Assembly (NCBI RefSeq): GCF_947568905.1
Contig: NC_079172.1
Span: 30,070,001 to 30,134,000 of the forward strand
Length of the DNA: 64,000 nt
Source of the DNA: Ostrea edulis
Taxonomy: Eukaryota
Direction of reading: 5' to 3'
The notes beneath the pieces were generated by a model that was not told where the DNA came from, made no database searches, and worked only from the letters and a program-made list of their open reading frames with translations. The position numbers were made by a program, and so were the translations under genes. Positions 13,611-36,017 of this stretch are shown piece by piece; the stretch's first letter is position 1, and each line of letters starts with the position of its first letter.

Positions 13611-14963
13611 CGAACAATAATACAGTATACATATATAAACAAATGATGATTACACATTATATTGACAACTGTATTACTTATGTTTTCACTTGTCTGAAAA
13701 CATTGAGTGTTAATGACAATTTTATAGATTTACATTTCCAATGATTTTGTCGTTGGTATCTTTACATGAACGCGCTGCGGGTGTAAACATGCGTATATAC
13801 GTATATATATTATACATATACAACTACATATACTTGATAAATATATAGCCTATTTAAGCGGCTAGTTATTCCGAGAGAAATGATTTGAGTAATGTGTGTT
13901 GCCCCAGACTGAGAGACAATCATCAGTTGTATACAAAGACATAATGTATGAATTGTGGAAAAGCTTCCGTGGTTGGATCGAATGAGGGCAGAGATTTTAA
14001 GCGACAGGGATTTACACACATATGGTCAATATATGAATATTGTACTGCAGCGAGTTATCTAAACATACTTCAAGGATTTTGTTTACGTGTTACTGTGTCT
14101 AGCGGTTGGTTCGATATGCAGAGATGGAAATCTTTTCTGATTTTTTCATATTTCTTCTGATGCGTACGGATCAACAATCGTCGCTTGCTACCCTTACGAA
14201 ATCCGGGATTCTATGACGTGAGTGAACGGAGACAATGGGCGTGGTTTGTGTCGATGACGGACTAACATGCATTTTGTTTTGTGTTGTAGTTATTTGAGAA
14301 CAACCTCTTTCTATATAACCAATAATAAATCGATATTGCATTTTGAAATAGATTGTAAATCTTCGCCAGAAACATGTAAAGGGGTACCTGTAAAGTGCGA
14401 AACGAAATCGAAACGAAACGAAATCTACCGAAACGAAACGAAACCTACCGAAACGAAACCCACCGAAACGAAACGAAACCTACCGAAATGAAACGAAACA
14501 GATTGTATAACCGAACTCTTTTAATTATCATAATTAAAAATGGTATCTTAGGCCCCTGTGAAAGTTACCACATATAACATTCGCCTCCCCTTTGATGTAG
14601 GCTTTCGGCTTGACTGTTACAAAGTTTTAAAAGTTGGAAAAGGGTGGGTGGGGGGGGGGGGGGGGTAAGCACAAAGTACATATCCGTAGTTGATTAAATA
14701 CCATGTACAATTAGTTTTGGATCCATAAATTTCAGAACCGAGGGTTACAGTCTCAGAGATCTGGAGAAACACATTATACGAGGGGTGGGATCGCCGACGT
14801 TGGATCCGCCTTTGGGCATAGATACATTGTTTGAAGAAGCTCGTGTCTGAAAAAATTGAAAGCAGGAAGAGCTCTTAACCTCTTATTTTATCTCTAACTG
14901 CTGAGGTGCGAGTACTTTCAATAATGGAAAAACTCTATACATTTGGGGTGTTGCTAAGACGGG

Positions 14964-15301
14964 AGTAGTATAACGCGTCCCGATAGGGAGTTCAACTGAG
15001 TGCACTTTTTATGCAAATGAGGTCAAGCAAGAGCGTTTTTGATTGGTCAAGCGGTGTCGGGGTCAACGGAGTGCACTAGGACGGGGTCAACCCCAGCAGG
15101 GGTTGTAGAGCGGGTGAATAGACTGGCCTATGGCCGCTGGTCTATGATGCGGTACTTTCGCTTTGAGTTCCTGGAATGAGTTCCTGCTATTTTTCTGAAA
15201 ATCCAGTGAAATCCTGTGTATTAAATCTAAAAGAATAACAGTGTATTAAATCTAAAAGAATAACACAAGGTTTTAAGTTGACATGTTTATTAAAGAACAA
15301 T
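14964..15301 (+). repeat. Left TIR (338 bp)
   Basis: Exact reverse complement of 34725-35062 as read by eye; starts AGTAGTA; contains a 25-bp tandem duplication at 15216-15265. Confidence 0.97.
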
Positions 15302-15407
15302 AGTACAATCCCCAGAGGTGGCACGGTCCCTAGTTTTACCCAGCGCTGTCTACAGGTAATATATATATAAAGCGGCGCGCGGTGCATTGGGTGTCACTTT
15401 CGACATC

Positions 15408-18400
15408 ATGTCAGACAAGTTACCTACTGGACTTCCACGGAGTTATATTGAACAGCGATTGAGATTTTTGAATGATCAGCTGAACAGACAACGGCAGCGT
15501 GAATTACAACTCCGCAGAGAGAATCAACGACGACTACAGTATTTACAGCGGGGAGGGGGGAAAAAGAAACTCATTTCGGATTATTACAAAATTCAACTGG
15601 AACGAGGACGTCAATCACGGAAATTTAAAGTCAAGGAAAATGTCTACAATGTTGCTTTCAAACCTATTCCAGAGAAAGAAAATACAACCTTCATTCGTCG
15701 GCTCTTCCGGGATATGTTAAAAAATGTGAAACAGGAAATGCAGTGCAATCCCAATGATTATCTACGTTTAAATATTCGGCACCCGTCTCTGGATTCAGCT
15801 ATTTGGTACGAATTTACGCAGTCCAATCAGCTCAACGAGGACAAAATTCTGAACAAAATAGAATCCGTCCAGCAATCTAAAAAGGAATTCCTAATCACCG
15901 ACGGGGCAGTGCAGATGGATTTTTTCCATGTCAAATATCCACAAGGCAGCGGGTGCACTAAGAAAAAACATCTACACGTGGATAAGGAGAAATTCAAAAC
16001 CTCTAAGAGAGCGATCGTTCGCATTCAAAATCCTGAGGATTCTCTCTGCTTGTCCCGGGCTATTGTGGTAGCACGTCTACACAGCCAGAAATCAAACGAC
16101 CCGGCATGGGAAACGAAATGGTTACGCATGAGAAAAGGGGATTTCAAAACGCTCGACCAGAAACGAGAAGCGATAGCCTTGATGGAACAAGCTGGGTGTG
16201 TTATGAACCACCCGTGTGGGCCGCGTGAATGGGAGCAATTACAGCACGCGCTCGCCCCACAGTATCGATTGAAAATATTTCAATTCAAAACGAATACAAC
16301 TCGTTTACGACTGGAACCTATTTACAAAGGACCGGGGCACGGGACTTGTTTGAATATCCTGCTGGATAACGAGCATTACGATGCCATTGTGTCTATGGCT
16401 GGAGTGACGGAAAACGGATACTATTGCGATTATTGCGATGTTGGTTACAGTCACATTGAAGATCATCGGACCGTCTGTCCTCATCGATGCTCATTTTGTT
16501 TAGCCGATACCCCCTGTACCCCGGACGGGACTCAGACGAATTGCCCTCATTGTAAGGGATTTTTCAGAAATGCAGCTTGTTACCAGACCCACTTGAAACC
16601 TTACAGCAGTAATACAACAACCACGGTCTGCAGTTTAATGGGGCGGTGTAACCAGTGTCAGAAATGGATGTCCAAGCAATTATTAAAACGCCACGCGTGT
16701 GGGGGTCAAACCGAATGCCGCATCTGTCACAAAGTCGTCACCATGCCTCATCACTGCTTTGTACAGACGAAACCCAAACCTAAGAAAGAAAAAGAAGAAG
16801 AAGAGGAGTTGAAAATATACATTTATTACGATTTCGAATGCAGTCAGGAAAACGGTATTCACATCCCCAATTTATGCGTGGCAGAACGTGTGTGTCAACA
16901 TTGCGACAGTGTGGATATCGACAAGCCCTGTTCTCATTGTGAAGGATTCGGATCACAACGCCGCTTCCTATTTCAAGGACCCGACACGTTAAAACAGTTT
17001 ATGGAATGGCTCTTACAGAGCGAGACCGATGAGCAAGGCCATGTGGAACTCAAACACGATGAAGCCACCATCATTGCCCACAATTTCAAAGGATACGATG
17101 GGCAGTTTATTTTGAATTACCTGGTTCACACGGCGTGTATCAAACCCACCGTCATCCTGAACGGCAGTAAAATCTTATCCATGCAAGTCTTGGGGTTGAG
17201 ATTCATCGATTCTTACAACTTTCTACCCTTTGCTCTTGCCAAGATGCCCTCTGCTTTCGGATTAACGGAATTGAAAAAAGGATATTTCCCGCACTTTTTC
17301 AACACGACAGAGAACCAGCAGTATGTGGGTCCTTACCCGGCCGCTCATTTCTACAATCCTGACGATATGTCCACCGCCAATCGTGAAGCCTTCTATACTT
17401 GGTACCATCAACAAGAGGGCAAAGTCTTTGATTTCCAGAAAGAATTCTTAGCTTACTGCATCTCGGATGTGGATATTTTACGCCGGTGTTGTGCCCATTT
17501 CAAGTCCACCCTGTTTGATCTGGTGGAAGTAGACCCCTTTCAAGAATCCATCACGTTTGCCAGCACGGCTAATTTAGCCTACCGACGAGGATTCATGGTT
17601 GAAAATACCATCGCCATCATTCCCAATATGGGCTACCGGCCAGCACGACGATATTCAGCTAAAGCTTGTCGATGGTTCGCCTGGCTAGAACATCAACATC
17701 ACTGCATACGACATGCTAGAAATGGGGGCGAAGTCACGCTTGGACCCTATACAGTAGATGGATATGATGAGGAATCTCGTATCGTGTACGAATTCTATGG
17801 CTGTTACTGGCACGGTTGTCCCACCTGTTTCCCGAATCTGTTGACTGACATGCATCCTCATCGTGTTCAGCATACGTATCAAGACCTCTACCTGGACACC
17901 TTAAAACGAGCCAGTGCTTTAGAAGACCAAGGCTATACAGTCGTGAGCATATGGGAACACGAGTTTGATCGTCAGACCCAGACCAATCCCGACTTACAGG
18001 AATTTTTACAAGGAGTCGATATACAAGATCCTTTGAATCCCCGTGACGCTTTGTACGGAGGCCGGACCAATGCTACACGACTGTATTGTGAGGAGGGTGA
18101 CATGCGATACGTGGATGTCTGTTCCCTGTACCCGTACGTGTTGAAATACAAGCCATTTCCCGTCCAACATCCCCAAGTCATCACCAGCCATTTCACCGAT
18201 GTCAGAGACTATTTCGGGCTCATTCGTTGTCGTGTCCTCCCACCCCGAGAGCTGTATCACCCCGTATTACCTTACAAGACCGGGGGTAAATTACTCTTTC
18301 CCTTATGCCGCACCTGTGTGGAACAGCGCAACTTAGGACCCGACGAGCGGTGCCAGCACACCGATTCTGAACGCAGTCTCACGGGCACCTGGGTGACCAC

Positions 18401-19370
18401 CGAACTTCACAAAGCATTAGATCTAGGCTATCGTCTCGACCGCATTTACGAAGTTTGGCATTTTGAGAAAACCAGTGACCACTTATTTCGAGCGTATATC
18501 AACACCTTTTTGAAAATTAAACAAGAAGCTTCCGGATTCCCCGAGGATTGTCAAACAGCCCAACAGCAGCAACATTACATTGAGGAAATTCAGCAACGAG
18601 AAGGCATTGCCATGAATCCGGCAGACATCCAGAAAAATCCGGTCCGAAGAACCATTGCCAAACTCTTTTTAAATTGTTTGTGGGGAAAATTTGCTCAACG
18701 ATTACAATTACCCAAATCCCTGTATCTCACGGAAGAAGAAGAATTACAACAGAAATTACAAGATGCCACTTTAGAAGTCAAAGGCATCGAACTCTTAGAA
18801 AATCGTGAACGCCCCGAATGTGATATGATGCTGATCAATTATCAGGAGAAAGAAGAATTTTTAGAAGACTGTCCCTTTGGAAACGTGGTGCTGGCGTGTT
18901 TTACAACAGCTCATGCTCGTTTACATTTGTACGAGACGTTACAGCCTTTGGGAGAGCGTGTCTTATACTTTGACACGGATAGTATCATCTATCAGCACGA
19001 CGAGACCCAGTTCAATCCGACCATTATCAACAGTTTAGGCGGCTGGACCGATGAATTGGGTGGAGATCGTATCATCAAGTACATGTCGGGCGGGCCCAAA
19101 AATTATGCATACGAGACCCAGGGGGGAAAATCTGTCTGCAAAGTCAAAGGATTGACACTCAATTATCGTGCCTCTAGAGTCGTGTCTCTCGATACGTTGG
19201 AAAAAATGTTAAAAGGAGAAGAAGAAGAAGTCCATGTCAGCTATCCGCACTTTATTCAACGAACCCGCCAACATGATGTGCGAACCATTCCTCTGGTGAA
19301 GAAATACCGCATGGTGTATGATAAACGTCAACGTATTCATAACTATGACACGCTGCCTTACGGGTATTAA
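15408..19370 (+). CDS. pPolB: Protein-primed family B DNA polymerase with N-terminal terminal-protein region, Cys-rich Zn region and Vsr-like nuclease insert (1320 aa)
   Basis: ExoI YYDFEC, ExoII AHNFKGYDG, ExoIII YCISDV, pol motifs YVDVCSLYP, KLFLNCLWGKF, LYFDTDS, PKNY; insert VDGY..YEFYGCYWHGCP; TATA at ~15364. Confidence 0.97.
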   Translation: MSDKLPTGLPRSYIEQRLRFLNDQLNRQRQRELQLRRENQRRLQYLQRGGGKKKLISDYYKIQLERGRQSRKFKVKENVYNVAFKPIPEKENTTFIRRLFRDMLKNVKQEMQCNPNDYLRLNIRHPSLDSAIWYEFTQSNQLNEDKILNKIESVQQSKKEFLITDGAVQMDFFHVKYPQGSGCTKKKHLHVDKEKFKTSKRAIVRIQNPEDSLCLSRAIVVARLHSQKSNDPAWETKWLRMRKGDFKTLDQKREAIALMEQAGCVMNHPCGPREWEQLQHALAPQYRLKIFQFKTNTTRLRLEPIYKGPGHGTCLNILLDNEHYDAIVSMAGVTENGYYCDYCDVGYSHIEDHRTVCPHRCSFCLADTPCTPDGTQTNCPHCKGFFRNAACYQTHLKPYSSNTTTTVCSLMGRCNQCQKWMSKQLLKRHACGGQTECRICHKVVTMPHHCFVQTKPKPKKEKEEEEELKIYIYYDFECSQENGIHIPNLCVAERVCQHCDSVDIDKPCSHCEGFGSQRRFLFQGPDTLKQFMEWLLQSETDEQGHVELKHDEATIIAHNFKGYDGQFILNYLVHTACIKPTVILNGSKILSMQVLGLRFIDSYNFLPFALAKMPSAFGLTELKKGYFPHFFNTTENQQYVGPYPAAHFYNPDDMSTANREAFYTWYHQQEGKVFDFQKEFLAYCISDVDILRRCCAHFKSTLFDLVEVDPFQESITFASTANLAYRRGFMVENTIAIIPNMGYRPARRYSAKACRWFAWLEHQHHCIRHARNGGEVTLGPYTVDGYDEESRIVYEFYGCYWHGCPTCFPNLLTDMHPHRVQHTYQDLYLDTLKRASALEDQGYTVVSIWEHEFDRQTQTNPDLQEFLQGVDIQDPLNPRDALYGGRTNATRLYCEEGDMRYVDVCSLYPYVLKYKPFPVQHPQVITSHFTDVRDYFGLIRCRVLPPRELYHPVLPYKTGGKLLFPLCRTCVEQRNLGPDERCQHTDSERSLTGTWVTTELHKALDLGYRLDRIYEVWHFEKTSDHLFRAYINTFLKIKQEASGFPEDCQTAQQQQHYIEEIQQREGIAMNPADIQKNPVRRTIAKLFLNCLWGKFAQRLQLPKSLYLTEEEELQQKLQDATLEVKGIELLENRERPECDMMLINYQEKEEFLEDCPFGNVVLACFTTAHARLHLYETLQPLGERVLYFDTDSIIYQHDETQFNPTIINSLGGWTDELGGDRIIKYMSGGPKNYAYETQGGKSVCKVKGLTLNYRASRVVSLDTLEKMLKGEEEEVHVSYPHFIQRTRQHDVRTIPLVKKYRMVYDKRQRIHNYDTLPYGY

Positions 19371-19405
19371 AAAGGACATGCTAGAGAAAACCATCAGTCG
19401 GCAAA

Positions 19406-19933
19406 ATGACGGACTACGAATCACTACATAACCCGGGTACACCACGTTATGCTCTACTGTCAGATCGAGTAACGTCGTTTGAAAATGCTCCCGAACACTT
19501 GCAGAACCTATTACCTACCATTGCAGAAGCGGGATACTTTTACAAAGGGTACGGGGATAACACGTGCTGTTTTTATTGCAACTTTGGACTTCACCATTGG
19601 GGAGCTGTCGACAATCCTTGGATACAACATGCTTATTGGTATCCTCACTGTCCTTACCTGAAGTGTAATAAGGGTAAACAATGGGTACGACAAGCCTTCA
19701 ATGCCTATGCCCGCGCTAAAGACAGTGGTTGCGATTGGGAAGGCTTACCCTTAGACGCGGCAGGGAATCCAATGTGTACCCAGAAATGTCACATTTGTTT
19801 AGAACGAGACTTGAGAATTGCTTTTTTACCTTGTGGTCATTTATGTACTTGTGCTATATGTGCTACGGGACTGAAACAATGTCCTATTTGTAGACATAGT
19901 GTTGAGCAAGCTGTACGTATTTTTATTTGTTAA
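19406..19933 (+). CDS. iap: Inhibitor of apoptosis (single BIR + C-terminal RING), 175 aa
   Basis: BIR RVTSF..AEAGYFY..CFYC..LHHW..D.PW.QH...PHCPYL; RING CHIC..LPCGHLCTCAIC..CPICR. Confidence 0.95.
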   Translation: MTDYESLHNPGTPRYALLSDRVTSFENAPEHLQNLLPTIAEAGYFYKGYGDNTCCFYCNFGLHHWGAVDNPWIQHAYWYPHCPYLKCNKGKQWVRQAFNAYARAKDSGCDWEGLPLDAAGNPMCTQKCHICLERDLRIAFLPCGHLCTCAICATGLKQCPICRHSVEQAVRIFIC

Positions 19934-19973: not shown

Positions 19974-20612
19974 ATGTATACCTACGAGACACTTGAACCT
20001 TTTCAGTTGAAACATGAATTTACCATGGTGGTGGCTGGACCCTCTAAATCGGGTAAAACAGAATTTGTCAAGCAACTGGTGCAAAATACACAGTGGATTG
20101 CACCGCCTCCCGAAAAGATAGTATGGTGTTATCGAGAATGGCAGTCCGCGTACGAATCCTTACAGGACAAGGTCACTTTTATCCGCAATATACCTCAAGA
20201 CGATGAGCAGATAGTGGCGGATCTCAGTACGCGTCATCTACTCATTTTTGATGATATGATGGGAGGTAAAGCCATCGAATCGATTGTCGACTGGTTTACG
20301 CGCAAAGCGCATCATCGCAATACCAGTGTCATTTATATCACACAAAATCTGTTTGATCGAGCAGTACAACATCGTACCATCAGTCTGAATGCTCACTATC
20401 TCGTGCTGTTTAAAAATCCTCGAGATAAATCTCAGATTGGGGTGTTAAGTCGGCAATTACAAATGCCGCATTTACTTCCAGCCTATGAGGACGCCACCCG
20501 TGTACCTCACGGGTATTTACTAGTGGACTTGAGTCCTCAGACGTCGGACGATTTAAGATTAAGAAGTCAACTCTTTACCAACTTGGCTGTGCACATGCCC
20601 CCGAGAGTATAA
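19974..20612 (+). CDS. A32-like FtsK/HerA DNA packaging ATPase
   Basis: Walker A GPSKSGKT, Walker B LLIFDD, ITQN and LNAHYLVLFKNPRD motifs. Confidence 0.95.
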   Translation: MYTYETLEPFQLKHEFTMVVAGPSKSGKTEFVKQLVQNTQWIAPPPEKIVWCYREWQSAYESLQDKVTFIRNIPQDDEQIVADLSTRHLLIFDDMMGGKAIESIVDWFTRKAHHRNTSVIYITQNLFDRAVQHRTISLNAHYLVLFKNPRDKSQIGVLSRQLQMPHLLPAYEDATRVPHGYLLVDLSPQTSDDLRLRSQLFTNLAVHMPPRV

Positions 20613-20661
20613 ATAATGTCACATCATGGGCAGGTGTATCATTCGAAAGACAATCTTCATC

Positions 20662-21534
20662 ATGGGTAGACCTTCCGCGAAGAGTAAATTAGTCAAAACG
20701 TTACGCCGTTTACAACGGGAACGGGATCCCGTTCAACGGAGCCATCTCATTGAATTAGGACGTAGAGCCTTACTCAACTGGTTTGCGATGGGCGCTCGAA
20801 ATTTATTGCGAGGCGTCTTACCAGGCAATAAAATCACTCAGCGGTTCATTCAATCCCATCGCCAAGACTTGAGTGTCATTGCCGATAAGAAGTCCAATGA
20901 AGAAGAGCGTAAAAAAGCCATTTTGAAACGAGGAGGCGCCGGATTCTTAGGAGGGACCATTATCCGTCATTTATTCAAATGGGAAACAGGCCGTAGGCCC
21001 CGTGGGGGACAACCCAAGAAAACCAAGAAACCACGGGCTAAGAAAGCTAAAAAATCGCCTCAGAGAATTCCTAAACTCATTATTCGCTTACCTAAGAAGA
21101 CACCTAAGAAATCCCCTAAGAAGTCCCCTAAGAAGACACCTCTCAGGATGAAGAATCCGTTTCCCAATTGGGCTCCAAAGAAAACCCCTCTCATTGTGAA
21201 GATGCCGTTTCCCAAGGCCACTCCCCCCAAGGCCACTAAAACGTTAGCCAATCTGAAAGCCGGATTAGCTCAAAAGAAAATGGAACGACCCATGCATGGA
21301 CCTATAGGAAGTTCCAGAACCAGTGATACTGCTCTACCGAGTTTTGCTCATACCTTTGGAAGCATGAAATTTCAACCCTTAACCACCTCAACACCGGTTC
21401 AGGTGCAAAAGAAATATAAATGTAAATTTTGCCCTCTGGTCTTCAATGCGAGAGAGAACCGCAATCGTCACGAAGAGACCGTCCATCACAAGCGTTTTGA
21501 TCCTAAACATCCGAGTGCCATTGTCCTGGACTAG
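20662..21534 (+). CDS. Basic core-like protein: conserved Maverick N-domain, GG-FL site, SPKK/TPKK repeats, C-terminal C2H2 finger (alternative start 20626)
   Basis: KRGGAGFLGG; KKTPKKSPKKSPKKTP; CKFC-x12-H-x4-H; TATA 20608 and TCATTC at 20639 favour the 20662 ATG. Confidence 0.8.
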   Translation: MGRPSAKSKLVKTLRRLQRERDPVQRSHLIELGRRALLNWFAMGARNLLRGVLPGNKITQRFIQSHRQDLSVIADKKSNEEERKKAILKRGGAGFLGGTIIRHLFKWETGRRPRGGQPKKTKKPRAKKAKKSPQRIPKLIIRLPKKTPKKSPKKSPKKTPLRMKNPFPNWAPKKTPLIVKMPFPKATPPKATKTLANLKAGLAQKKMERPMHGPIGSSRTSDTALPSFAHTFGSMKFQPLTTSTPVQVQKKYKCKFCPLVFNARENRNRHEETVHHKRFDPKHPSAIVLD

Positions 21535-21574
21535 GTATAAAAAGGAGGGGGAAGGGGCCCCACCCTTCATTACC

Positions 21575-21904
21575 ATGGCTCATACGAAGAAGTGTGAATG
21601 TCGATTACGACCTCATTTACCGCTCTTGCAGACGTTAGCGGCTCCTCACTATTCCAGCAAATTAAAGACAGAGGTGTTGAAACATTGTTCCAATGACTGC
21701 ATTTTAAAGATTTGTGAGATTGTGTACAATCTATTAAAAGGGGTGATTCCTCTCAATCCTACTCAGAAGCGACAACTGGGTCGAAAGAAACACATCTTAA
21801 GACGCTTAGTCCGGACTCAACCCGTGAAAAAACGACGAGGTATACTCATCCACCAAAAAGGATTGGGTTCGTTTGTGTGTGGCAAGATTTGTAAGAAATC
21901 ATGA
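21575..21904 (+). CDS. Conserved small basic Maverick protein (PW-like, name tentative), 109 aa
   Basis: ICEIVYNLLKGVIPL...QKGLG; TATAAAAGG at 21536. Confidence 0.8.
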   Translation: MAHTKKCECRLRPHLPLLQTLAAPHYSSKLKTEVLKHCSNDCILKICEIVYNLLKGVIPLNPTQKRQLGRKKHILRRLVRTQPVKKRRGILIHQKGLGSFVCGKICKKS

Positions 21905-23735: not shown

Positions 23736-23989
23736 CCAACCAGTGGACTTTCTTGGGTGAAAAAGTCCCTCGAGCAGAAATTGTGTATTTTGCACAATTA
23801 TTCCTGTGTTTAACCATCATTATCACCTCGGTCGTCATGTTAGCCTTAGGCGATCCCAATCGCGATTTTTGGATGGTCACCTTAAGTTCTTTGGTGGGCT
23901 ACGTCATGCCTAGTCCACAAATGACGTTAGCGAGCCCGAGTATAAAACAGGAACGATCTTCTTCAGATTCATCAGTTCACCATGGCTAA
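23732..23989 (+). CDS. Small two-TM membrane protein (85 aa)
   Basis: Hydrophobic IVYFAQLFLCLTIIITSVVMLAL and FWMVTLSSLVGYVMPSP; ATG overlaps the integrase stop. Confidence 0.75.
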   Translation: MTNQWTFLGEKVPRAEIVYFAQLFLCLTIIITSVVMLALGDPNRDFWMVTLSSLVGYVMPSPQMTLASPSIKQERSSSDSSVHHG

Positions 23990-26489: not shown

Positions 26490-27893
26490 ATGATGCACCG
26501 AGAATCTTGCGCTTGTGGCACCAGCAGTTTAGAACTGTTTAAAGTGCCCCCGACCAACGTCACTTTAGAAGATTCGAAATGGATGGAATATTATCCCATT
26601 TCCAGTACCCTCAACTCGGATACGGCTCCGATTGAATTTGAAATCAAAGGACAAGGAGATGAATATCTGGATTTATCCCAAACTTATCTCCAGATGGTAT
26701 GTAAATTCACGAAAGCCAATGGAACGAATCTCGCAGGAGGCAATTCGACCTCCACCCCCGTGAATAACATTCTCCATTCCTTGTTCAGTGAAATCGATGT
26801 CAGTCTCAATGGAAAAGTCATTACCCCGGGGACGGATACTTATCCCTACAAAGCGTATCTGGAGAAATTGTTGTCTTATGCACCCAAGACTCTGGAAACC
26901 CAGATGAGAGCCTGTAGCTTGTGGGAAAAAGATACGGCAGGACATATGGATGAGGTCAAATTAGAAGCTCTGGCTCAAACTCCTGTGGAATTTGCAGTAG
27001 TGTCTAACAAAGTCAACATCGCGGCCGTCATCCCGACTCCCGAGTATCCGGATGATTCCAAGAATGTAGGGTTGAGAAAACGTCACGAGAAGATTACAGA
27101 CAGTAAGGAGATCGTGTTGATGGATCGATTACATCTGGATTTGTTTGAGCAAGAGAAATGTCTCCCTAATGGCTTGGATGTCCGTCTCAGATTCAATCGC
27201 GCTCGACCCCAGTTCTACATGATGACCGCTGCCGGGAGTAGTGGGAAAGTGGCCATTCAAAGTATGATCTTGTGGGTGAGGAAAGTCAAACCTGTGCCGA
27301 GTATCATTAATCTCATCAATCAGCAACTGAGTACTCAAACGGCGAAATATCCATTGAGACGAGTGGAAGTGAAAACCTTCACCATTCCTAGTGGCACCCA
27401 ATCTAAAATCACCGATCATCTGTTTCAAGGACAGATGCCTAAACTGATCGTGTTGGGCTTTGTGGACAATGCGGCTTTTAATGGGGATAATACCAGAAAC
27501 CCCTTTCATTTCCAAAATGAGAGAGTCAAGAAATTAGAAATCAGTATCAATGGAGAAATGATGGAAACCCGACCTTTGGAACCTAATTTCACCGACGATC
27601 AGTACCTGAGATCGTATTTGAGTCTGTACAAAGGCTTGGGAAAATTAGGTCAGGACTGGGCTCCGGACATTACCCTGGAAGAGTATAAAAACGGTTACAC
27701 CCTCTGGTGTGTGGATTTCACGAAAGATCAAGAAGCCCAGACGGATAAATTTCATCTCATACAGACGGGGAACTTGAGAGTGGAAGTGCAATTTGCCGCC
27801 AACGTAGCCAGGACCTTAAACTGTGTGGTGTATGCCGTGTTCGACAATCTGCTAGAAATCAACAAACAACGAGAAGTCAGTATCGATTACTAA
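26490..27893 (+). CDS. MCP: Double jelly-roll major capsid protein (467 aa)
   Basis: C..SSLELF.VPPT; YLDLSQTYL; [10 protein letters not shown]; P..IVLGFV; GNLRVEV.F. Confidence 0.96.
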
Positions 27894-27900
27894 GAGAGAG

Positions 27901-28398
27901 ATGGATACTCAGCAATTGAGAGATGTTTTACAACGAGATTTAGGACCGGCGTTTGCCGGTGTGTATCCTCGAGATGTCATACCTGAGCTGTTACCTCATC
28001 ACAAAGCCATCGTGGTGAATACAGACCCTCACGATCGCCCTGGAGCGCATTGGGTCTGTTTGTATTTGAGTAGCCCTACCGTCGAATATTTTGATTCTTA
28101 CGGATTACCTCCCAGCCATAAAGACATCCAAGACTTTATTCAACGCCACGGAGAGACTTGGATTCATAACACCCATTGTTATCAAGATTTGAATACGGAT
28201 GTCTGTGGACAATACTGTGTGTATTTTTTACATCAACGCCATCGCCATAGAAGCACCGTACGAGAATGGTTACTTCCCTGGAAAGGCACGGCCTTACAAC
28301 GCGATCGTTTTGTGGCGGATTGGTTTAAAGAGACCTTCCGTAAACCGAGAACCCATCAAGGACAAACTTGTCAATGTCAAAGACTGAATGTATTGTAA
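27901..28398 (+). CDS. Adenain-like cysteine maturation protease
   Basis: NTD..PGAHWV, YFDSYG, Q..TDVCGQYC catalytic motifs. Confidence 0.95.
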   Translation: MDTQQLRDVLQRDLGPAFAGVYPRDVIPELLPHHKAIVVNTDPHDRPGAHWVCLYLSSPTVEYFDSYGLPPSHKDIQDFIQRHGETWIHNTHCYQDLNTDVCGQYCVYFLHQRHRHRSTVREWLLPWKGTALQRDRFVADWFKETFRKPRTHQGQTCQCQRLNVL

Positions 28399-28500
28399 AC
28401 TATGTTATTGTTATTGTTCATAGTTGGAGTTTAATAAAACGTTGGAAAAAAAAAATTTCTTGTCATTGTAATCAACCATGTCTTTTCAAAAAGAATGGGT

Positions 28501-28516
28501 AGCCCTGAAAAGGGCT
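28501..28516 (-). terminator. Histone-mRNA-type 3' stem-loop AGCCCT-TTTC-AGGGCT followed by ACCCA and HDE-like GAAAAGAC
   Basis: Minus strand AAAAC AGCCCTTTTCAGGGCT ACCCA TTCTTTTT GAAAAGAC, 94 nt after the stop of 28611-28907. Confidence 0.8.
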
Positions 28517-28610
28517 GTTTTCTTTCTCTCTCTGTTCTTGGTCTTTTCTCTTCTTCTTCTCTCTTCTCCTTCTTCTCCTTCTCTTCTTCTTCTTTTCTTC
28601 TCGGTCCCCC

Positions 28611-28907
28611 TCACTGTCTGTTCTTCTTCTTCTTTCTTCTCTTCTTTTTCTGCTCCTCCGGGGGTTGCTCGTGGTCAAACACAAAAACGGGCAACCACCC
28701 GTGTTTAAAAAACAATCTCCCCGGAGGCCGCTGTACCACTTCTAACTCTGCGTCCCAGTTTTCTTCTGGCGGGGGCAGATCCTGGCTCATGGGCGGTGGG
28801 GGAAGAGCCTCCCGTGAGGCCGGCGGGGTAATCTCTTGCTCCCAATCCTCCTCCCATTTGATACAATAATCATTCACCGTAGGGTCTGGTCCTACTCTGC
28901 GGCTCAT
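28611..28907 (-). CDS. Unknown acidic/Pro-rich 98-aa protein with a basic NLS-like tail
   Basis: ATG-initiated, shared promoter motif upstream, stem-loop downstream. Confidence 0.65.
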   Translation of the reverse strand: MSRRVGPDPTVNDYCIKWEEDWEQEITPPASREALPPPPMSQDLPPPEENWDAELEVVQRPPGRLFFKHGWLPVFVFDHEQPPEEQKKKRRKKKKNRQ

Positions 28908-28973: not shown

Positions 28974-29034
28974 AGCGCGGACGTCCTCGAAAACATCCCC
29001 TACCTCAGATGGCTGACGTCATGTTGATGACTCA
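28974..29034. promoter_or_regulatory. Divergent promoter: 26-bp motif copy 1, CRE TGACGTCA (29014-29021), AP-1 TGACTCA (29028-29034)
   Basis: AGCGCGGACGTCCTCGAAAACATCCC matches 30705-30730 at 25/26. Confidence 0.65.
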
Positions 29035-29082: not shown

Positions 29083-29484
29083 ATGTCGTTTGAACGGTAC
29101 GCGGATGATGAGAATGATGTACTAGTGTGTGGGTATTGCCGAGGACCTTGGAGCACTTGTGGCTGTTTTCATTATAAAAAAGAAAACATCCTGGCCAAAC
29201 AGAAGTGGATAGAGAGATTGGCAGAGCTGACGTATTATCCCTTTGTCTATAAATGTTGTGGTCACACTAGAGAACCCTGGCTAGAGTGTAAGTGTCCGCA
29301 ACATTGTACCATCACCCCTGAAGAAGAAATAGTGCATAAGGACTGTACCTGTGAGATCTGTCAGGAGTTTAGAGAGCGCTGGACTCATAGAAAGTTTGAT
29401 CCCCGGCTGTTTCAACATTGTCCTTACAGTCAAGAACCCCGGTCAACGTGTACCTGTGAGACCTGTCAACCAGCATGTCGGTGA
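29083..29484 (+). CDS. Cys-rich putative metal-binding protein (133 aa)
   Basis: CGYC, CGC, CC, CKC, CTCEIC, CTCETC clusters; TATA ~29046. Confidence 0.7.
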   Translation: MSFERYADDENDVLVCGYCRGPWSTCGCFHYKKENILAKQKWIERLAELTYYPFVYKCCGHTREPWLECKCPQHCTITPEEEIVHKDCTCEICQEFRERWTHRKFDPRLFQHCPYSQEPRSTCTCETCQPACR

Positions 29485-29663: not shown

Positions 29664-29775
29664 CTTTATTATAGCTTTATTCTAGCTATTACTTGTGTTA
29701 ATAAAAACTTTTTTAAAACAAACTTGTGTGTTTCTTGATTTTTGCCATAAAAAGTGTCTTTTCAAAAAAGTTGGT

Positions 29776-29791
29776 GGCCCTGAAAAGGGCC
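29776..29791 (-). terminator. Canonical histone-mRNA 3' stem-loop GGCCCT-TTTC-AGGGCC with CCAAAC/ACCAA flanks and HDE-like GAAAAGAC
   Basis: Minus strand CCAAAC GGCCCTTTTCAGGGCC ACCAA CTTTTTT GAAAAGAC, 22 nt after the stop of 29814-30602. Confidence 0.9.
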
Positions 29792-29813
29792 GTTTGGTCC
29801 TAAGGACCGACTT

Positions 29814-30602
29814 TCATTCCCTGGTTCCGGTAAACCGGCATAACGGGCACCGTCCCCGGGTGTGTCGCCGCTCCTGTAACTCTTCCACGCACGAGCAGCA
29901 AGCTGGGCGTTGCCCACATCCCCTGCACGTGATACCAGAGTGTACCCTGTCTTGCCAGCAGACAGGGCACTTAAACCAAATGGGAACCGCCCTATCTGCC
30001 CAGCCAGGGACAGTCATAGGGTGGTTCCTCGGGGGATGAGTTGCCACCGGTGCGTGGGTTGGTCTCGGTGGCGGAGTCCTCCCTGCAAACCGGATGGTAG
30101 GTGGTGGGGGTCTTGCAGGGGCTGCCGGTCTCGGTGGTGATGACGTGGCTGCCACCAGCAGCGACGGACTCTGGGCTGGACTGGGAGGTGGTGCGGGGGA
30201 CGGTGACCGCGGTGAATACTCCACCGGTGACGCTGGTGAGTCGCTCATCGGCACCGGGCTGTATTCCACTGGTGCCGATGGGATCGCTGGTGGTGGTGTT
30301 GTAGGCGTCGCCGGGGAGTAAGGTGGTGGTGGTGAGGGTGGCTGTGGGGCCCGTCGGCGCGGTCTCGTGGCCGTGGAGATCCGGGCGGTGCGGCGGCGGG
30401 GTGCCCTCCCTTCATACTCGGCCCGCACCCGGCAGATGATCTCACGGACCCCACTCTGGTCGAAAGGGGAGAAGGTGCTCAGGTCGTTCTCAGAACGCAC
30501 GACCCAATTCTCCCCTACCCGTTCCTCAGCCACCACTACCAGCCGGTACCGGAATCCAGGCAAGGTCTGAAAATTGTAGAGCGGGTCTCTTCTTGTAGCC
30601 AT
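29814..30602 (-). CDS. Pro-rich protein with C-terminal RING-like Zn finger (putative E3 ligase)
   Basis: CPVC-x-CRGC..CCSC-x-CPLC; PPPPY and YSP repeats; visibly GC-rich. Confidence 0.8.
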   Translation of the reverse strand: MATRRDPLYNFQTLPGFRYRLVVVAEERVGENWVVRSENDLSTFSPFDQSGVREIICRVRAEYEGRAPRRRTARISTATRPRRRAPQPPSPPPPYSPATPTTPPPAIPSAPVEYSPVPMSDSPASPVEYSPRSPSPAPPPSPAQSPSLLVAATSSPPRPAAPARPPPPTIRFAGRTPPPRPTHAPVATHPPRNHPMTVPGWADRAVPIWFKCPVCWQDRVHSGITCRGCGQRPACCSCVEELQERRHTRGRCPLCRFTGTRE

Positions 30603-30704: not shown

Positions 30705-30780
30705 AGCGCGGACCTCCTCGAAAACATCCCTCGCTTCGGAGACGAAGCCAAGATGGTGGCCGTCAAAATGGCGGATTTGT
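30705..30780. promoter_or_regulatory. 26-bp motif copy 2 plus YY1-like AAGATGGTGGCC / AAAATGGCGG, upstream of a TATA-like box (~30692-30698) for the RING gene
   Basis: AGCGCGGACCTCCTCGAAAACATCCC at 30705-30730. Confidence 0.6.
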
Positions 30781-31165: not shown

Positions 31166-31384
31166 TCAAATACATAACTCCCACACACAACACCAATTCA
31201 CATGTCTTTTTAAAATAGGGTCCAACATTTTTTCCATTTCTCGAATCCTGCGTTGAAATCGATAGCGATCAGCGGCTACAGTCATCCAGATACTTGTCCG
31301 GTCTTCTTCGGGTAACAGATGCACTTCATTTTGATCCAGATTAAAAGTCACACGTTTAACTTGACGTACATCTCTCGAAGACAT
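31166..31384 (-). CDS. DP71L/ICP34.5/GADD34-like PP1-eIF2alpha adaptor (72 aa)
   Basis: RVxF motif KRVTF plus R..W...AADRYRFQRRI..ME..L..IL; AATAAA 15 nt after the stop. Confidence 0.88.
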   Translation of the reverse strand: MSSRDVRQVKRVTFNLDQNEVHLLPEEDRTSIWMTVAADRYRFQRRIREMEKMLDPILKRHVNWCCVWELCI

Positions 31385-31653
31385 CGTAGTCTGATTTTCT
31401 CGATTTCTGCTCTGTCTGTGGGTCGAATTCGTTTCAATTCCTGGCCCATTAAATGAATCAGTACTAAGGCTTGCGGGGTGATCCGGTTCTCGATCAAATA
31501 CTGACAGAGACATGGATAGTCCTTTAAGCTGATGGGAAATAATTCTTCTCGCATATAGTGTAACACAAATTCAAACTGCCCAGAATGAATGTCTGTGAGA
31601 TAATCCAATACATAAACTATCGCTTTCTCTGTGATGTGGTCACTGCTGGCCAT
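31348..31653 (-). CDS. Helical multigene-family member A (probable divergent Bcl-2 fold), 101 aa
   Basis: FPISLKDY..LVLIHLMGQELKR.P..EIE; DNA around the start nearly identical to member B. Confidence 0.65.
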   Translation of the reverse strand: MASSDHITEKAIVYVLDYLTDIHSGQFEFVLHYMREELFPISLKDYPCLCQYLIENRITPQALVLIHLMGQELKRIRPTDRAEIEKIRLRCLREMYVKLNV

Positions 31654-31987
31654 CCTCCGGGAATAAATGAAATGAATTAAGTTCTTCACACTTTATGTAT
31701 ACTTCTCGAAGCCAGTCCTTGGTGATACTTTCAATCTCGGCGGTTTTTTCAGGCATGCGTTTCTTGAATTCCTCCCCCGCGACATAAATTAACATCAACC
31801 CCGCATCGTTATAGAGATTGATGTACACATGGTTCCGTAGATCTGTATATTCGTCCAGAGTCATTGGAAACACCCCCGCTATCAGATAATTTTTAACAGC
31901 TTGAAACACCGTATCGTCTTGCATTTTCTCCACCCATTCTAATGCATGGTTATGCGCTTTTTCTGCGATGTTGTCACTGCTGGCCAT
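31640..31987 (-). CDS. Helical multigene-family member B (probable divergent Bcl-2 fold), 115 aa
   Basis: FPMTLDEY..NDAGLMLIYVAGEEFKKRMPEK..EIE..WLREVY. Confidence 0.65.
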   Translation of the reverse strand: MASSDNIAEKAHNHALEWVEKMQDDTVFQAVKNYLIAGVFPMTLDEYTDLRNHVYINLYNDAGLMLIYVAGEEFKKRMPEKTAEIESITKDWLREVYIKCEELNSFHLFPEDGQQ

Positions 31988-32015
31988 CCTCCAGGAATAA
32001 AGGAAAAGAAAACGG

Positions 32016-32369
32016 TTAGGTTTTTTTATACACCTTTTCCAGCCAGTGATCGGTAATCGCTACAATCGCCCCAGTCTTCTCAGGTTCCCGTCGTCTAAAT
32101 TCTTGGTCCATGTTATAAATCATGATCAATCCAGACTCTCTGTTCAGGTTGTCGGCTATATGCTTGCAAACGCTGGAATATTCATATAAGGTCATAGGAA
32201 ATTCCCAAAAGATCAACAACTTCATGGCGAATTTATATCTCAACGGCTGTTTTTCTTTCCAGTCCTTGATACACTGTAATGCAGCGCTACGAGCGTTGTT
32301 CACCGATTCTTTGTAGTCCTCGAAATGCTGTAATACAGCGGTAAGAACGTTGTTGGTCAATTCAGCCAT
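32016..32369 (-). CDS. Helical multigene-family member C (probable divergent Bcl-2 fold), 117 aa
   Basis: FPMTLYEY..NRESGLIMIYNMDQEFRRREPEK..WLEKVY. Confidence 0.65.
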   Translation of the reverse strand: MAELTNNVLTAVLQHFEDYKESVNNARSAALQCIKDWKEKQPLRYKFAMKLLIFWEFPMTLYEYSSVCKHIADNLNRESGLIMIYNMDQEFRRREPEKTGAIVAITDHWLEKVYKKT

Positions 32370-32406
32370 GATGATCAAAATGAAAAAATTCCAAAACGTT
32401 CTTGTT

Positions 32407-32739
32407 TTATAACAGGCCAGCCATTCCTTTCATACGAATCAGTTCCACGAATCCTTTTTGTAGACAATCGCGTAAGATCCGATCAATGTCACTCATCTGG
32501 TCTGGAAGATTCTGTTTCAATTCCTCAGCATACAAATAAATCATGAGTAAACGTCCCGTATTGGTATTCTCCGCTAATGAATCAGCAATCCGTTGAAAAC
32601 TATGTACATTTCTGACCTCCGGTGACATCTGTTGTACAAATTGACGAGCATTTTGAATGTGAGGATTATGTAAGGCCACGTTCATACATTGTAGTACATA
32701 ACTATATCCATTTATTCTCGTAGTAGCACTGCCGCCCAT
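32407..32739 (-). CDS. Helical multigene-family member D, the most Bcl-2-like; possible N-myristoylation (MGGSAT), 110 aa
   Basis: BH1-like SFQRIADSL..TNTGRLLMIYLYAEEL; BH2-like LQKGFVELI. Confidence 0.65.
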   Translation of the reverse strand: MGGSATTRINGYSYVLQCMNVALHNPHIQNARQFVQQMSPEVRNVHSFQRIADSLAENTNTGRLLMIYLYAEELKQNLPDQMSDIDRILRDCLQKGFVELIRMKGMAGLL

Positions 32740-32763
32740 AGTAAATAACGAACGTTCAGAAAA

Positions 32764-32843
32764 CACCTGTATTTATAGGTAAAGGTTATGCATCACGTGA
32801 TCAAACACCTGCACCACGTGATCAAACACCTGTACGTCAGCTG
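32764..32843. promoter_or_regulatory. E-box-rich bidirectional promoter with a 21-bp tandem repeat
   Basis: CACCTG x3, CACGTG x2, CAGCTG x1; minus-strand TATAAAT at 32771-32777. Confidence 0.6.
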
Positions 32844-32878
32844 GTTTTTCTACAGTCATTCTTGTCTGACCTTCAGTC

Positions 32879-33385
32879 ATGGATACACGGAGAATTTTAA
32901 GAGCGAGACGCCGCCGCCAGGGAATACAACCAGTAGAGAATTTAACCATAGTAGAAGATTATGTAGACGAGATGGAGATCTGGGATAATTTAGTACAGAG
33001 ATGTCGCCATCGATTACGCTGGGGCCGATCTAAAAATTGGTGTTTTGACTATGTATTGCGGTCACATGAAACAGTGGAGGATATTTACCTGCGTTTAAGT
33101 GACATGTACCTGAAAAATTCCCCCCTCATACAGTACATGATTTACCAGTTTTACACGTTATTGAACGGCACTCAAAAAGTATCGGGATTTATTCGACTGG
33201 AGAAACCACGTTACCGGAGAAGTGTATGGGTATTGTTTTGGGATGCACACTGGATGTGGGAAACCGTCGAAGAGATACGTTTCCCCGGGAGAAGAGCTCG
33301 ACAATTAGTACAACACATTATATCCGAAGATCATGACTTACACGTGTATATAGAAGAACCTGCGTATGAAGCCGGCCATTTTTAA
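32879..33385 (+). CDS. Inactivated CRESS-DNA-virus Rep-like HUH endonuclease domain (168 aa)
   Basis: Motif I-like RSKNWCF; YMIYQ..NGTQKVSGFIRLEKP..AHW aligns by eye with circovirus-type YxIxxxE..GTPHLQGF..AHxE; catalytic His and Tyr absent. Confidence 0.65.
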   Translation: MDTRRILRARRRRQGIQPVENLTIVEDYVDEMEIWDNLVQRCRHRLRWGRSKNWCFDYVLRSHETVEDIYLRLSDMYLKNSPLIQYMIYQFYTLLNGTQKVSGFIRLEKPRYRRSVWVLFWDAHWMWETVEEIRFPGRRARQLVQHIISEDHDLHVYIEEPAYEAGHF

Positions 33386-33404
33386 AAATAAAAACTTCAT
33401 GCAC

Positions 33405-33420
33405 AGCCCTTTTTAGGGCT
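33405..33420 (+). terminator. Third histone-type stem-loop AGCCCT-TTTT-AGGGCT
   Basis: 19 nt after the stop of 32879-33385; flanks GCAC/ACTTT; no clear HDE; AATAAA also at 33387-33392. Confidence 0.6.
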
Positions 33421-33705
33421 ACTTTAAACACCAATATAAGTTCCATTCCACTAAAGTCAATGTGTACCAATGGGCACTAGCACGCGCTGGTCGCGAGAAA
33501 CCGGCTTTTCAAGTTCAATTAGTGCACTAGCACGCGCTGGTCGCGCGATGTTCTAGCTGAAACCGGTTTTTCCAGAAAAAGATGATGCAACCACGTGATC
33601 CCCACGTGCCCCTCACGAGACAGAATAGTCTAGACATTTTGCTGGCTATAAAAGCGGAGCCCCAGTGTCAGTCCTCATTCGATCTTCAATCACCTTCCAG
33701 AAGAC

Positions 33706-34623
33706 ATGGCTCAGAAACAACTAGAATTTGTGGACAAAGCTCAGAAGAAAATAGATCAGCTGGTACAGAAGGAGATGGGGCCACAGAAAGACTACATTGA
33801 ACTGAAGAAAGCTAAGAGTGACGATCAGAAGACTGAACTGGGGAAGACCTCGAACTTCTTGCTCACGTCTCCAGACTACGTTGCTCAAAGAAGAAGAGAA
33901 GAGAAGAAGATGGCCCAGACCTCGAACCAGACCACGAGCTTCAATCTCACGCCTTCAGACCACGTTGCTCGACAAGTGAAGATGGCCCAGACCTCGGATT
34001 ACCTCCCTAGCCAGAATCCGACAGACCCGGGATTAGGCTTCTATTTTCCCGATTCACAGGACGCTACGGGACTGGAGATGGGCTTATACGATAAACCCCC
34101 CTTCGGCGGAGAAGATTCCCCCATGAGCAGGACCGATTTCGCCATCATTACCACGACACTAGACGGGATCGTTAACCGCATTAATGTGCTGAGTAATGAG
34201 ATTGGAAATCATACCACAATCCTACTGAAGAAGCTGGAAGACCTGACTTCTAAAAAACCTAGGAAGGAATACACTCCAGATTACACTGCTAACCCGTGCT
34301 ACACGTGTGGAGAAACAGGACATTGGTCGCCGGATTGCCCACAGAAAACAGATTATCCGCAGACCAGTAAGAAATCGTGGTCGGCAGATTCTCAACAGAC
34401 CAGCAAGAAAACCAAACAAAAGGATCCTTGCTTCAAATGCGGAAAAATAGGACACTGGATTAGTGAGTGTCCAGAAGAACAAGCGGAGATAGATGCGATG
34501 ATTGGACCCGTACCTGGCTCAAAACCACCTGTGAAGAGAGAATACACACCGTTAGAGATGTGGAATCCACCCGCACCTACTGAAGAACGGCCAAAAAAGA
34601 AGAAGAAACTCAGCAGAAAGTAA
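33706..34623 (+). CDS. Double CCHC zinc-knuckle protein with coiled coil and NLS (305 aa)
   Basis: CYTCGETGHWSPDC and CFKCGKIGHWISEC; PKKKKK; TATAAAAG at 33647; AATAAA 34735 inside the right TIR. Confidence 0.85.
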   Translation: MAQKQLEFVDKAQKKIDQLVQKEMGPQKDYIELKKAKSDDQKTELGKTSNFLLTSPDYVAQRRREEKKMAQTSNQTTSFNLTPSDHVARQVKMAQTSDYLPSQNPTDPGLGFYFPDSQDATGLEMGLYDKPPFGGEDSPMSRTDFAIITTTLDGIVNRINVLSNEIGNHTTILLKKLEDLTSKKPRKEYTPDYTANPCYTCGETGHWSPDCPQKTDYPQTSKKSWSADSQQTSKKTKQKDPCFKCGKIGHWISECPEEQAEIDAMIGPVPGSKPPVKREYTPLEMWNPPAPTEERPKKKKKLSRK

Positions 34624-34724
34624 TGGACTGTGCTTGAACTGTTATACTTATTGAACTGTTTTTTATGCTTATTGAACTGTTTTTATGTTTATTGAATTGT
34701 TTTGCATTGTTCTATGCTTGTACC

Positions 34725-35062
34725 ATTGTTCTTTAATAAACATGTCAACTTAAAACCTTGTGTTATTCTTTTAGATTTAATACACTGTTATTCTTTTAGA
34801 TTTAATACACAGGATTTCACTGGATTTTCAGAAAAATAGCAGGAACTCATTCCAGGAACTCAAAGCGAAAGTACCGCATCATAGACCAGCGGCCATAGGC
34901 CAGTCTATTCACCCGCTCTACAACCCCTGCTGGGGTTGACCCCGTCCTAGTGCACTCCGTTGACCCCGACACCGCTTGACCAATCAAAAACGCTCTTGCT
35001 TGACCTCATTTGCATAAAAAGTGCACTCAGTTGAACTCCCTATCGGGACGCGTTATACTACT
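34725..35062 (-). repeat. Right TIR (338 bp)
   Basis: Ends ...CGTTATACTACT followed by TSD GACGGG. Confidence 0.97.
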
Positions 35063-36017
35063 GACGGGGAATTGAAAACGGGACGGAAAACGGAATTTTT
35101 TTAATGCAATAATATTAGGAGGAGGTCGGCATTTTGTAAACTGAAAAGGCTTAAGAACGAGGTAATTTTAAGCAGAAATCACAAAGAGAACGGGAGGGCA
35201 TATTCAGAATCCACCGTTTGATATACTACATACAAATACACAATATCCACATGTATACATATATTTGTCTTCAGAGCAAAAAATACTGAAACATGTATTT
35301 ATGTCCAAAGGCGGATCCAACGCCGACGACCCCATCCCTCGTTTAGTGTGTTTCCCCAGACCTCTGACCTGTGAGACTGTAACCTTCCGTTCTGAAATTG
35401 ATGATATTTATGTACTTTGTGCTTACCACCCCCCCCCCCCTTTCCAACTTTTAAAACTTTGTATCAGTCAAGCCGAAAGCCTACATCAAAAGGGAGGCGA
35501 ATTTTATTTATATGTGTAAACTTTAACAAGGGCCTAAGATACCATTTTTAATTATTATAAATAAAAGAGTTCAATTATACAATCTGTTTCGTTTCGTTTC
35601 GGTAGGTTTCGTTTCGTTTCGGTGGGTTTCGTTTCGTTTAGGTAGATTTCGTTTCGTTTCGGTAGATTTCGTTTCGTTTTGGTAGATTTCGTTTCGTTTC
35701 GTTTCGATTTCGTTTCGCACTTTACAGGTACCCCATGTAAAGTGGCATTATCAGCAAATAAATCGATGTTACAGTATATGGCCATAAATGAGTCATGATT
35801 TAATTTTTTTTTCGCTATAAAAATATGTAATGAGCTATCAATAACGTTGCAATAGGTTAAAAAAAATTTCAATGACATATGAAATGAGGACTCACTTATA
35901 CGGCCATATACTGTAGAGTTTTAAATGCATGGTGGATCATTACTGTAACACAGAAATAAAAGCGGTCATAGTATAGACCCTTGCGGAACTCCCGTTGCGA
36001 CTGACTGGTATTGGTTA

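Follow-up and report, generated by a model that had tools for sequence, protein, structure and literature searches.

The window analysed here, 64 kb of Ostrea edulis DNA (NC_079172.1, positions 30,070,001 to 30,134,000), contains a Maverick (polinton) of 20,099 bp at 14964-35062, and three of the open reading frames (ORFs) of this element are followed by stem-loops of the kind that ends replication-dependent histone mRNAs. From the sequence, we consider it somewhat on the probable side that the element is a competent polintovirus of oysters (Ostreidae) whose accessory genes use SLBP/U7 processing. An intact young Maverick is by itself ordinary, as 134 intact copies were described in 17 vertebrate species (PMC8097293) and some corals hold hundreds of Mavericks with terminal inverted repeats (TIRs) (PMC11131425); the histone-type 3' ends are the unusual part. 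An end formed by this stem-loop and not by poly(A) is described as unique to replication-dependent histone mRNAs (PMC4604434, PMC9169081), and cross-linking and immunoprecipitation of SLBP in HeLa cells recovered histone mRNAs only, with no non-histone target (PMC4604434).

Histone-type 3' ends in the Maverick

Across the 64 kb, Rfam gave one match above the gathering score, to Histone3 (RF00032, gathering score 34), with 40.2 bits at 29751-29796 (-). Two further RF00032 matches lie inside the Maverick, with 32.0 bits (28476-28521, -) and 22.3 bits (33400-33446, +), and no other Rfam match was found within the element up to E 1. The three elements, the ORFs that they follow and a promoter block common to two of these ORFs are as follows.

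28476-28521 (-): histone-type 3' element 1; RF00032 E 8.5e-06, below the cut-off
28611-28907 (-): ORF98, acidic and Pro-rich, with a basic C-terminal tail; ORF call
28974-28999 (-): promoter block common with RING262, a GTCCGC core upstream of a T/A-rich box; sequence comparison
29751-29796 (-): histone-type 3' element 2, the best of the three; RF00032 E 2.3e-08
29814-30602 (-): RING262, with a Pro-rich linker and a C-terminal RING-like finger; 68-protein mollusc cluster
30705-30730 (-): RING262 promoter block AGGTCCGC, followed after 11 nt by TATATA; sequence, layout of a mouse H4 primer
32879-33385 (+): ORF168, followed by AATAAA (+2) and by the third stem-loop (+20); ORF call
33400-33446 (+): histone-type 3' element 3, weak; RF00032 E 0.036

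The stem-loop of element 1 (28501-28516) lies 95 nt past the ORF98 stop, and that of element 2 (29776-29791) lies 23 nt past the RING262 stop. Both have A-rich 5' flanks (AAAAC and CAAAC, respectively), ACCCA or ACCA after the stem, and a common purine-rich element 13-14 nt downstream. Element 3 has a perfect stem-loop (33405-33420) with poor flanks, 20 nt past the ORF168 stop. All three fold as a 6-bp stem with a 4-nt loop (16 nt) and keep the G-C at stem pair 2 and the U at loop position 3, which are the diagnostic positions (10.64898/2026.10.14.759114). Between them, stem pair 1 differs by a two-sided change, with G-C in one stem-loop and A-U in the other two. When the window was searched with a degenerate stem-loop pattern, three matches were found, all inside the Maverick, against 0.16 expected, and none of 100 shuffles reached three; the 43.9 kb of flanks hold no histone-type stem-loop. 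The three stem-loops are all on the sense strand and at most 100 nt past a stop, for which the chance is 0.006 among non-coding positions. The median distance from stop to stem-loop in metazoans is 30 nt (10.64898/2026.10.14.759114).

ORF98 and RING262 are unalike in protein sequence, and the 26-nt promoter block that they have in common occurs nowhere else in the 64 kb. We take GGTCCG to be a HINFP site. In RING262 the block AGGTCCGC and the TATA that follows it have a layout like that of a primer for the mouse histone H4 proximal promoter (PMC3128520). Judged by its sequence matches, RING262 is a real mollusc-wide gene: the ESM Atlas gave a mollusc protein of 263 aa at 0.99 and further rows of RING proteins at about 0.83. 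In phages, no match to RING262 was found. Taken together, these genes resemble replication-dependent histone genes in stem-loop sequence, flanks, stop distance (two of three), downstream purine element (two of three), lack of introns and H4-like promoter layout. They are unlike them in that the Maverick ORFs are not histones and sit in a virus-like element.

Termini and core genes

The ends of the Maverick read 5'-(AGT)2...(ACT)2-3', and it is flanked by a 6-bp target-site duplication (TSD).

14958-14963 (+): left TSD, GACGGG; sequence
14964-15301 (+): left TIR, 338 nt, which starts with (AGT)2 and contains a 25-nt tandem duplication; identical to the right TIR
34725-35062 (+): right TIR; identical to the left TIR
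35063-35068 (+): right TSD, GACGGG; sequence

An earlier note on this DNA had called the 338-bp TIRs identical and the TSD perfect, and we confirmed both. The TIRs form an exact run of 338 nt without mismatch (345 nt if one mismatch is allowed), and among repeat lengths of 2-11 the two sides match at 6 only; a chance match of a 6-mer is expected about 1 time in 4096. The GC content is 45% in the Maverick and 36% in the flanks. With TIRs that end in (AGT)n, a 6-bp TSD, a protein-primed polymerase, a DDE integrase, a packaging ATPase and a protease, the element is a Maverick. It has 23 plausible ORFs, and 16,952 of its 20,099 bases are coding. The core genes are all on the plus strand, in the order listed here up to the protease.

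15408-19370 (+): protein-primed DNA polymerase B (pPolB), 1320 aa; Pfam DNA_pol_B_2 E 2.5e-57, ExoI-III and Pol A/B/C motifs
19406-19933 (+): IAP (BIR and RING), 175 aa; Pfam BIR E 1.7e-15, zf-C3HC4_3 E 9.6e-12
19974-20612 (+): A32/FtsK-like packaging ATPase, 212 aa; Pfam Pox_A32 E 5.4e-07, above the Pfam cut-off, with Walker A and B
20626-21534 (+): 302-aa ORF with a Lys/Pro-rich middle and a C-terminal C2H2 finger; N-terminus a weak paralogue of the PM-like ORF that follows (27% over 56 aa, E 0.001)
21446-21904 (+): PM-like ORF; gene order only (atp-pm-pz, PMC8097293)
21901-22668 (+): PZ-like ORF, 255 aa; gene order only
22650-23735 (+): retroviral-type integrase with a C-terminal chromodomain, 361 aa; Pfam rve E 1.3e-10, Chromo E 4.1e-08
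23702-23989 (+): 95-aa ORF with two hydrophobic stretches; ORF call, no match in Pfam or PHROG
23982-24434 (+): 150-aa ORF; ORF call
24548-25543 (+): minor capsid protein (PX, penton; mCP), 331 aa; likeness to the P-1_CI PX row, one gene upstream of the major capsid protein
25718-26410 (+): basic core protein in the PW position, 230 aa; gene order
26490-27893 (+): putative major capsid protein (PY, MCP), 467 aa; gene order, size and family
27901-28398 (+): adenain-like cysteine protease, 165 aa; Pfam Peptidase_C5 E 2.9e-04
29083-29484 (+): Cys-rich ORF (ORF133), 133 aa; ORF call

In the integrase the D, D and E are visible, and it matches a foamy-virus integrase (E 6.5e-07). The Peptidase_C5 match of the protease scores 21.0 bits against a cut-off of 21.3, with His, Asp, Gln and Cys visible. 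The N-terminus of the mCP matches by eye the published PX row of P-1_CI (PMC4028283 supplement), and a PDB sequence search with it was negative; from this N-terminal likeness and its position it can be assigned as a single jelly-roll minor capsid protein. The MCP has 515 homologues at E<=1e-20 and no PDB sequence match, and its single-sequence structure model (predicted local distance difference test, pLDDT, of 30) was unusable.

The TIR length (338 bp here, range 46-1,447), the (AGT)2 ends, the 6-bp TSD and the size (20.1 kb here, range 12.7-24.6) agree with those of Mavericks from aquatic animals, and the two modules pPolB-ATP-PM-PZ and INT-mCP-PW-MCP-PRO have the gene order of vertebrate Mavericks (Barreat and Katzourakis 2021, PMC8097293). 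Unlike in those Mavericks, both modules are on one strand here (as in X. tropicalis), an IAP gene lies between pPolB and the ATPase, and there is one 6-kb accessory region with histone-type 3' ends. Adintoviruses (Starrett et al. 2021, PMC8502044) are likewise polintoviruses of animals whose accessory genes include Bcl2 and IAP, and an IAP label stands beside the bivalve maps of Fig. S2 in that paper; the available part of its text makes no mention of GADD34 or of a stem-loop.

Intactness, age and relatives

The core ORFs are each single, full-length and without internal stop, and tblastn with relatives from O. edulis and Saccostrea gave one unbroken frame each for MCP and pPolB, in line with the claim of the earlier note that no frameshift or stop is visible in any core gene. 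That note had named loss of catalytic residues relative to sister copies as evidence that would speak against a mobile element; the catalytic residues of integrase and protease and the Walker motifs of the ATPase are visible. The pPolB has all exonuclease and polymerase motifs. In an alignment of 121 rows, 215 columns are conserved in 90% of the rows or more, and it departs from none of them (the median relative departs from 5). Likewise, the MCP departs from none of 144 conserved columns over 87 rows (86 of 120 matches that were long enough, plus the MCP of the window), and it has no residue unseen in the 86 relatives, where sisters have 0-7. As possible decay we looked at seven residues of pPolB, all before residue 514, that none of 120 relatives shows; they were not counted as such, because the stretch aligned to the 99% sister does not include them.

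The closest named MCPs are from Ostrea edulis (98% identity over 467 aa, 99% over 329 aa), followed by a group at 87-88%. The closest pPolB, also from O. edulis, aligns without gaps over 789 aa at 99.1% identity, and another cluster, with 22 members, is at 81%. The O. edulis relatives lie on different contigs (77-112 Mb) and therefore on different chromosomes. In a quick-search pPolB tree of 21 sequences (that of the window and 20 named ones of the 120 relatives), the pPolB of the window falls within a fully supported oyster clade with Ostrea, Crassostrea and Saccostrea groups, and its end branch is 0.0015, compared to 0.0073 for its sister. These sequences suggest that the Maverick lineage is old in oysters and spread recently in Ostrea. 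A Maverick MCP fragment, 32% identical, is also present on a scaffold of a bacterial metagenome-assembled genome in GTDB (L001:453-1385, 1,387 bp), which is probably eukaryotic or viral contamination.

With 0 mismatches in 338 nt, the per-copy divergence is bounded at 0.44% (95%), and adding the 10.5 kb of open core ORFs lowers this bound to 0.11-0.26%, depending on the assumed indel rate (about 0.16%). This gives an age of at most 0.2-2 million years for rates of 2e-9 to 1e-8 per year; the rates are assumptions, intact copies are preferentially noticed, and the age is an upper bound only. The description of the insertion as very young thus agrees with the TIR identity, the 98-99% O. edulis sisters and the short end branch, at the strength of an upper bound. 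The ratio of observed to expected CpG was rejected as an age marker: it is 0.92 in the element and 0.66 and 0.60 in the flanks, but the adjoining host DNA at 10-14 kb also has 0.9-1.0. This host region resembles an unmethylated promoter region.

The Maverick is nested in an older non-autonomous element.

14382-35733 (no strand assigned): older non-autonomous TIR element hosting the Maverick; 1,247 bp minus the Maverick

This outer element has 42-bp perfect termini and a 9-bp TSD (alternatively 43 bp and a 7-bp TSD), and its inner arms are 7-9% apart. By the length of its TSD we take it to be Mutator-like. Its two parts (14382-14957 and 35069-35733) contain CGAAA-type subterminal arrays, no second copy of its end was found within the window, and it could in principle carry the Maverick along as cargo. 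The earlier note had contrasted the Maverick with clearly decayed host repeats and had called it much younger than these. The divergence of the inner arms agrees with decay, but the perfect ends and TSD of the same element do not, nor do several nearby tandem arrays, which are 94-97% alike. What stands is the order of events, which the nesting gives; the contrast in decay is not a valid clock. Overall, the sequence supports a young and coding-competent Maverick.

The insertion site appears intergenic, because the flanks hold an exon of a host RING (TRIM-like) gene at 12314-12733 (-), about 2 kb from the insertion, and long host exons on the plus strand from 42 kb onward. One of the host exons, at 56446-59766 (+), has 1,106 codons with 43 copies of a 33-bp repeat (a Thr/Ser-rich 11-mer) and no significant Pfam match. 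The tandem arrays mentioned above are at 1168-1664, 7217-8071 and 9298-9551, and a palindromic host repeat of about 380 bp at 45056-45436 resembles a miniature inverted-repeat transposable element.

Counter-defense and other accessory genes

The accessory set, which comprises IAP, a DP71L/GADD34-like ORF, RING and possible Bcl-2 folds, looks counter-defense-like by sequence. Besides the genes listed above, it includes the following.

31166-31513 (-): DP71L/GADD34-like PP1-recruiting ORF; Pfam PP1c_bdg E 1.9e-05
31348-32739 (-): four tandem all-helical paralogues (101, 115, 117 and 110 aa); sequence and structure model
33706-34623 (+): 305-aa ORF that has two CCHC zinc knuckles (gag-like) and ends in a basic C-terminal tail; Pfam zf-CCHC E 3.1e-15

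The PP1c_bdg match of the DP71L-like ORF has 24.9 bits, just under the cut-off of 26.1, and the best PDB matches are DP71L of African swine fever virus (ASFV; E 1.3e-04) and PPP1R15B (E 2.8e-04). As in ASFV DP71L and PPP1R15 (GADD34, CReP), there is an RVxF motif with a downstream W...DR.RF..RI motif of the eIF2-alpha-binding type, within about 70 aa, which are the features of the DP71L/GADD34 PP1 adaptors; an internal ATG gives 72 aa, close to the 71-aa ASFV chain. Unlike its relatives, the ORF lies in a Maverick, and its frame differs from that of paralogue 1, the end of which it overlaps (31166-31653, -). Among 30 matches of the paralogue family, the DP71L-type motif occurs in one (P0250), there in the same ORF as the paralogue. 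An own start, recoding or a lesion are possible explanations of this frame relation. No paper that joins polintons and GADD34 turned up in the literature that we searched.

The paralogues are 21-36% identical to the first, belong to a family of 30 matches among 50% representatives, and have an 89% alike block of 56 nt around the starts of paralogues 1 and 2. A structure model (five helices, pLDDT 88) gave ASFV A179L in the structure comparison as best match (Z 7.3, under 8; root-mean-square deviation 3.3; 100 aligned), and Bcl-2 family proteins filled 10 of the first 14 rows and 17 rows out of 50. Pfam gave a weak Bcl-2 match (E 0.0066) for one of the four paralogues and none for 14 relatives. 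No viral model was recovered with Foldseek at E<=0.001 and no PDB sequence with a profile search, the homologue search with paralogue 1 was without match, and paralogue 2 had no usable ESM Atlas match. The model therefore provides a lead, not a result: the four paralogues may have a truncated Bcl-2-like fold. The 305-aa CCHC ORF, which adjoins the right TIR, is a possible RNA-binding protein. Candidate transcription-factor sites are tandem 21-nt repeats with CACGTG E-boxes at 32789-32832, in the promoter region from which paralogue 4 and ORF168 diverge, and a pair of 25-nt repeats at 33474-33548, upstream of the CCHC ORF.

Discussion

According to the Polinton model of replication, packaging and integration (PMC4028283), and by what is known of the family, protein-primed replication that starts at the (AGT)2 ends would copy the element, it would be packageable, and its integrase would insert it with a 6-bp TSD. 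In the reading that we favor, RING262 and ORF98, possibly together with ORF168, have the architecture of replication-dependent histone genes. The H4-like promoter would drive transcription of RING262 and ORF98, and the host SLBP/U7 machinery would cut five bases after the stem-loop, resulting in mRNAs without poly(A). Translation of such mRNAs would be confined to S phase, or they would be kept in store in oocytes, and they would be degraded once replication stops, so that a ubiquitin ligase and a small nuclear protein would be timed to dividing or germ cells. The transcripts of RING262 and ORF98 would also end short of the convergent genes (protease and ORF133), and double-stranded RNA would be avoided. 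The wider idea, that oyster Mavericks are animal DNA viruses with a whole histone cassette (HINFP/NPAT-type promoter and SLBP/U7 3' end) for non-histone genes, is more tentative, and we would place it slightly below an even chance.

Several points weigh against SLBP/U7 processing of these genes. Element 1, at 95 nt, is beyond the 25-60 nt from the stop that are called critical (10.64898/2026.10.14.759114). Element 3 is under the Rfam cut-off, is without an ACCA flank and has AATAAA just upstream, and AATAAA signals about 130 nt downstream of RING262 make poly(A) forms possible as well. The stem-loops are known from one Maverick copy, by sequence alone, and the downstream elements are candidate U7-pairing sites, judged by their purine richness (two of three). 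The promoter likeness stands on one mouse primer and on one motif of H4 promoters. Of the three genes, RING262 is the one with established homologues, and the MCP label comes from position, size and family, its double jelly-roll fold being putative.

This could also be an ordinary young Maverick in which the hairpins and the promoter block are relics of host histone genes, taken up for instance through an earlier insertion into a histone cluster and duplicated along with the accessory genes, and in which the mRNAs are polyadenylated normally. The common downstream and promoter sequence of elements 1 and 2, perhaps from one capture that was duplicated, would fit with this, as would the degenerate flanks of element 3 and the nearby poly(A) signals. 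We nevertheless consider relics unlikely. The signals are conserved although ORF98 and RING262 are unalike, the stems keep full pairing and differ at pair 1 on both sides, none of 24 ORFs has a histone Pfam match that would indicate a histone coding remnant, and a compact 20-kb genome with this coding density keeps little junk. It is quite improbable, in our view, that the hairpins are functional not as S-phase timers but as decoys for SLBP or as U7-independent terminators or stabilizers, which could, for example, titrate SLBP and disturb the host histone supply or stop read-through between convergent genes. Elements 1 and 2 are indeed located between convergent genes, and human cytomegalovirus (HCMV) relocalizes SLBP and needs it for a non-histone purpose, by a mechanism given as unknown (PMC9169081). 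A decoy would not need the cleavage flank and the downstream purine element of elements 1 and 2, which are needed for U7-dependent cutting, and the H4-like promoter points to cell-cycle control.

Very improbable, finally, is a copy that is no longer competent, either because the insertion is older and fixed and owes its tidy state to gene conversion of the TIRs or to a low mutation rate, or because an accessory gene is damaged. The different frames of the DP71L-like motif and paralogue 1, which share one ORF in P0250, the missing close relatives of paralogue 1 and an age that is an upper bound only would be consistent with such a copy. Against it stand the absence of any departure in 359 conserved columns of two core proteins and an MCP without residues unseen in its relatives. 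Furthermore, the DP71L-type motif is the exception in the paralogue family, most members of which are stand-alone in length, and the DP71L-like part has its own ATG. We therefore continue to favor a competent polintovirus with SLBP/U7-processed accessory mRNAs.

In the literature that we searched, we found no viral, transposon or non-histone mRNA with a histone-type end and no paper linking the histone stem-loop to polintons; coverage was incomplete, and absence from print is not proven. The word 'stem-loop' does not occur in the available parts of PMC8097293, PMC8502044 and PMC11071296, nor 'histone' in those of PMC8097293, PMC11131425 and PMC10748475. A 2026 survey reported no SLBP-pathway proteins in large DNA viruses, and in it stem-loops were sought behind histone genes (10.64898/2026.10.14.759114).

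If the wider idea of a whole histone cassette is true, the mRNAs of the RING ligase and of other accessory genes would be the first natural non-histone mRNAs that are bound by SLBP and lack poly(A), and activation of the element would be tied to S phase or to the storage of mRNA in oocytes, and so to germ-line insertion. Use of the histone 3'-end pathway by a virus-like element would be host mimicry of a new form. RNA sequencing after poly(A) selection, by which Maverick activity is normally judged, would miss such transcripts. An intact copy with genes for counter-defense against apoptosis and eIF2-alpha signaling also speaks for a true viral phase of Mavericks in a farmed species. No Maverick particles were known when PMC8097293 was written, and to the question of when and in which cells Mavericks switch on the histone-type ends offer a testable answer.

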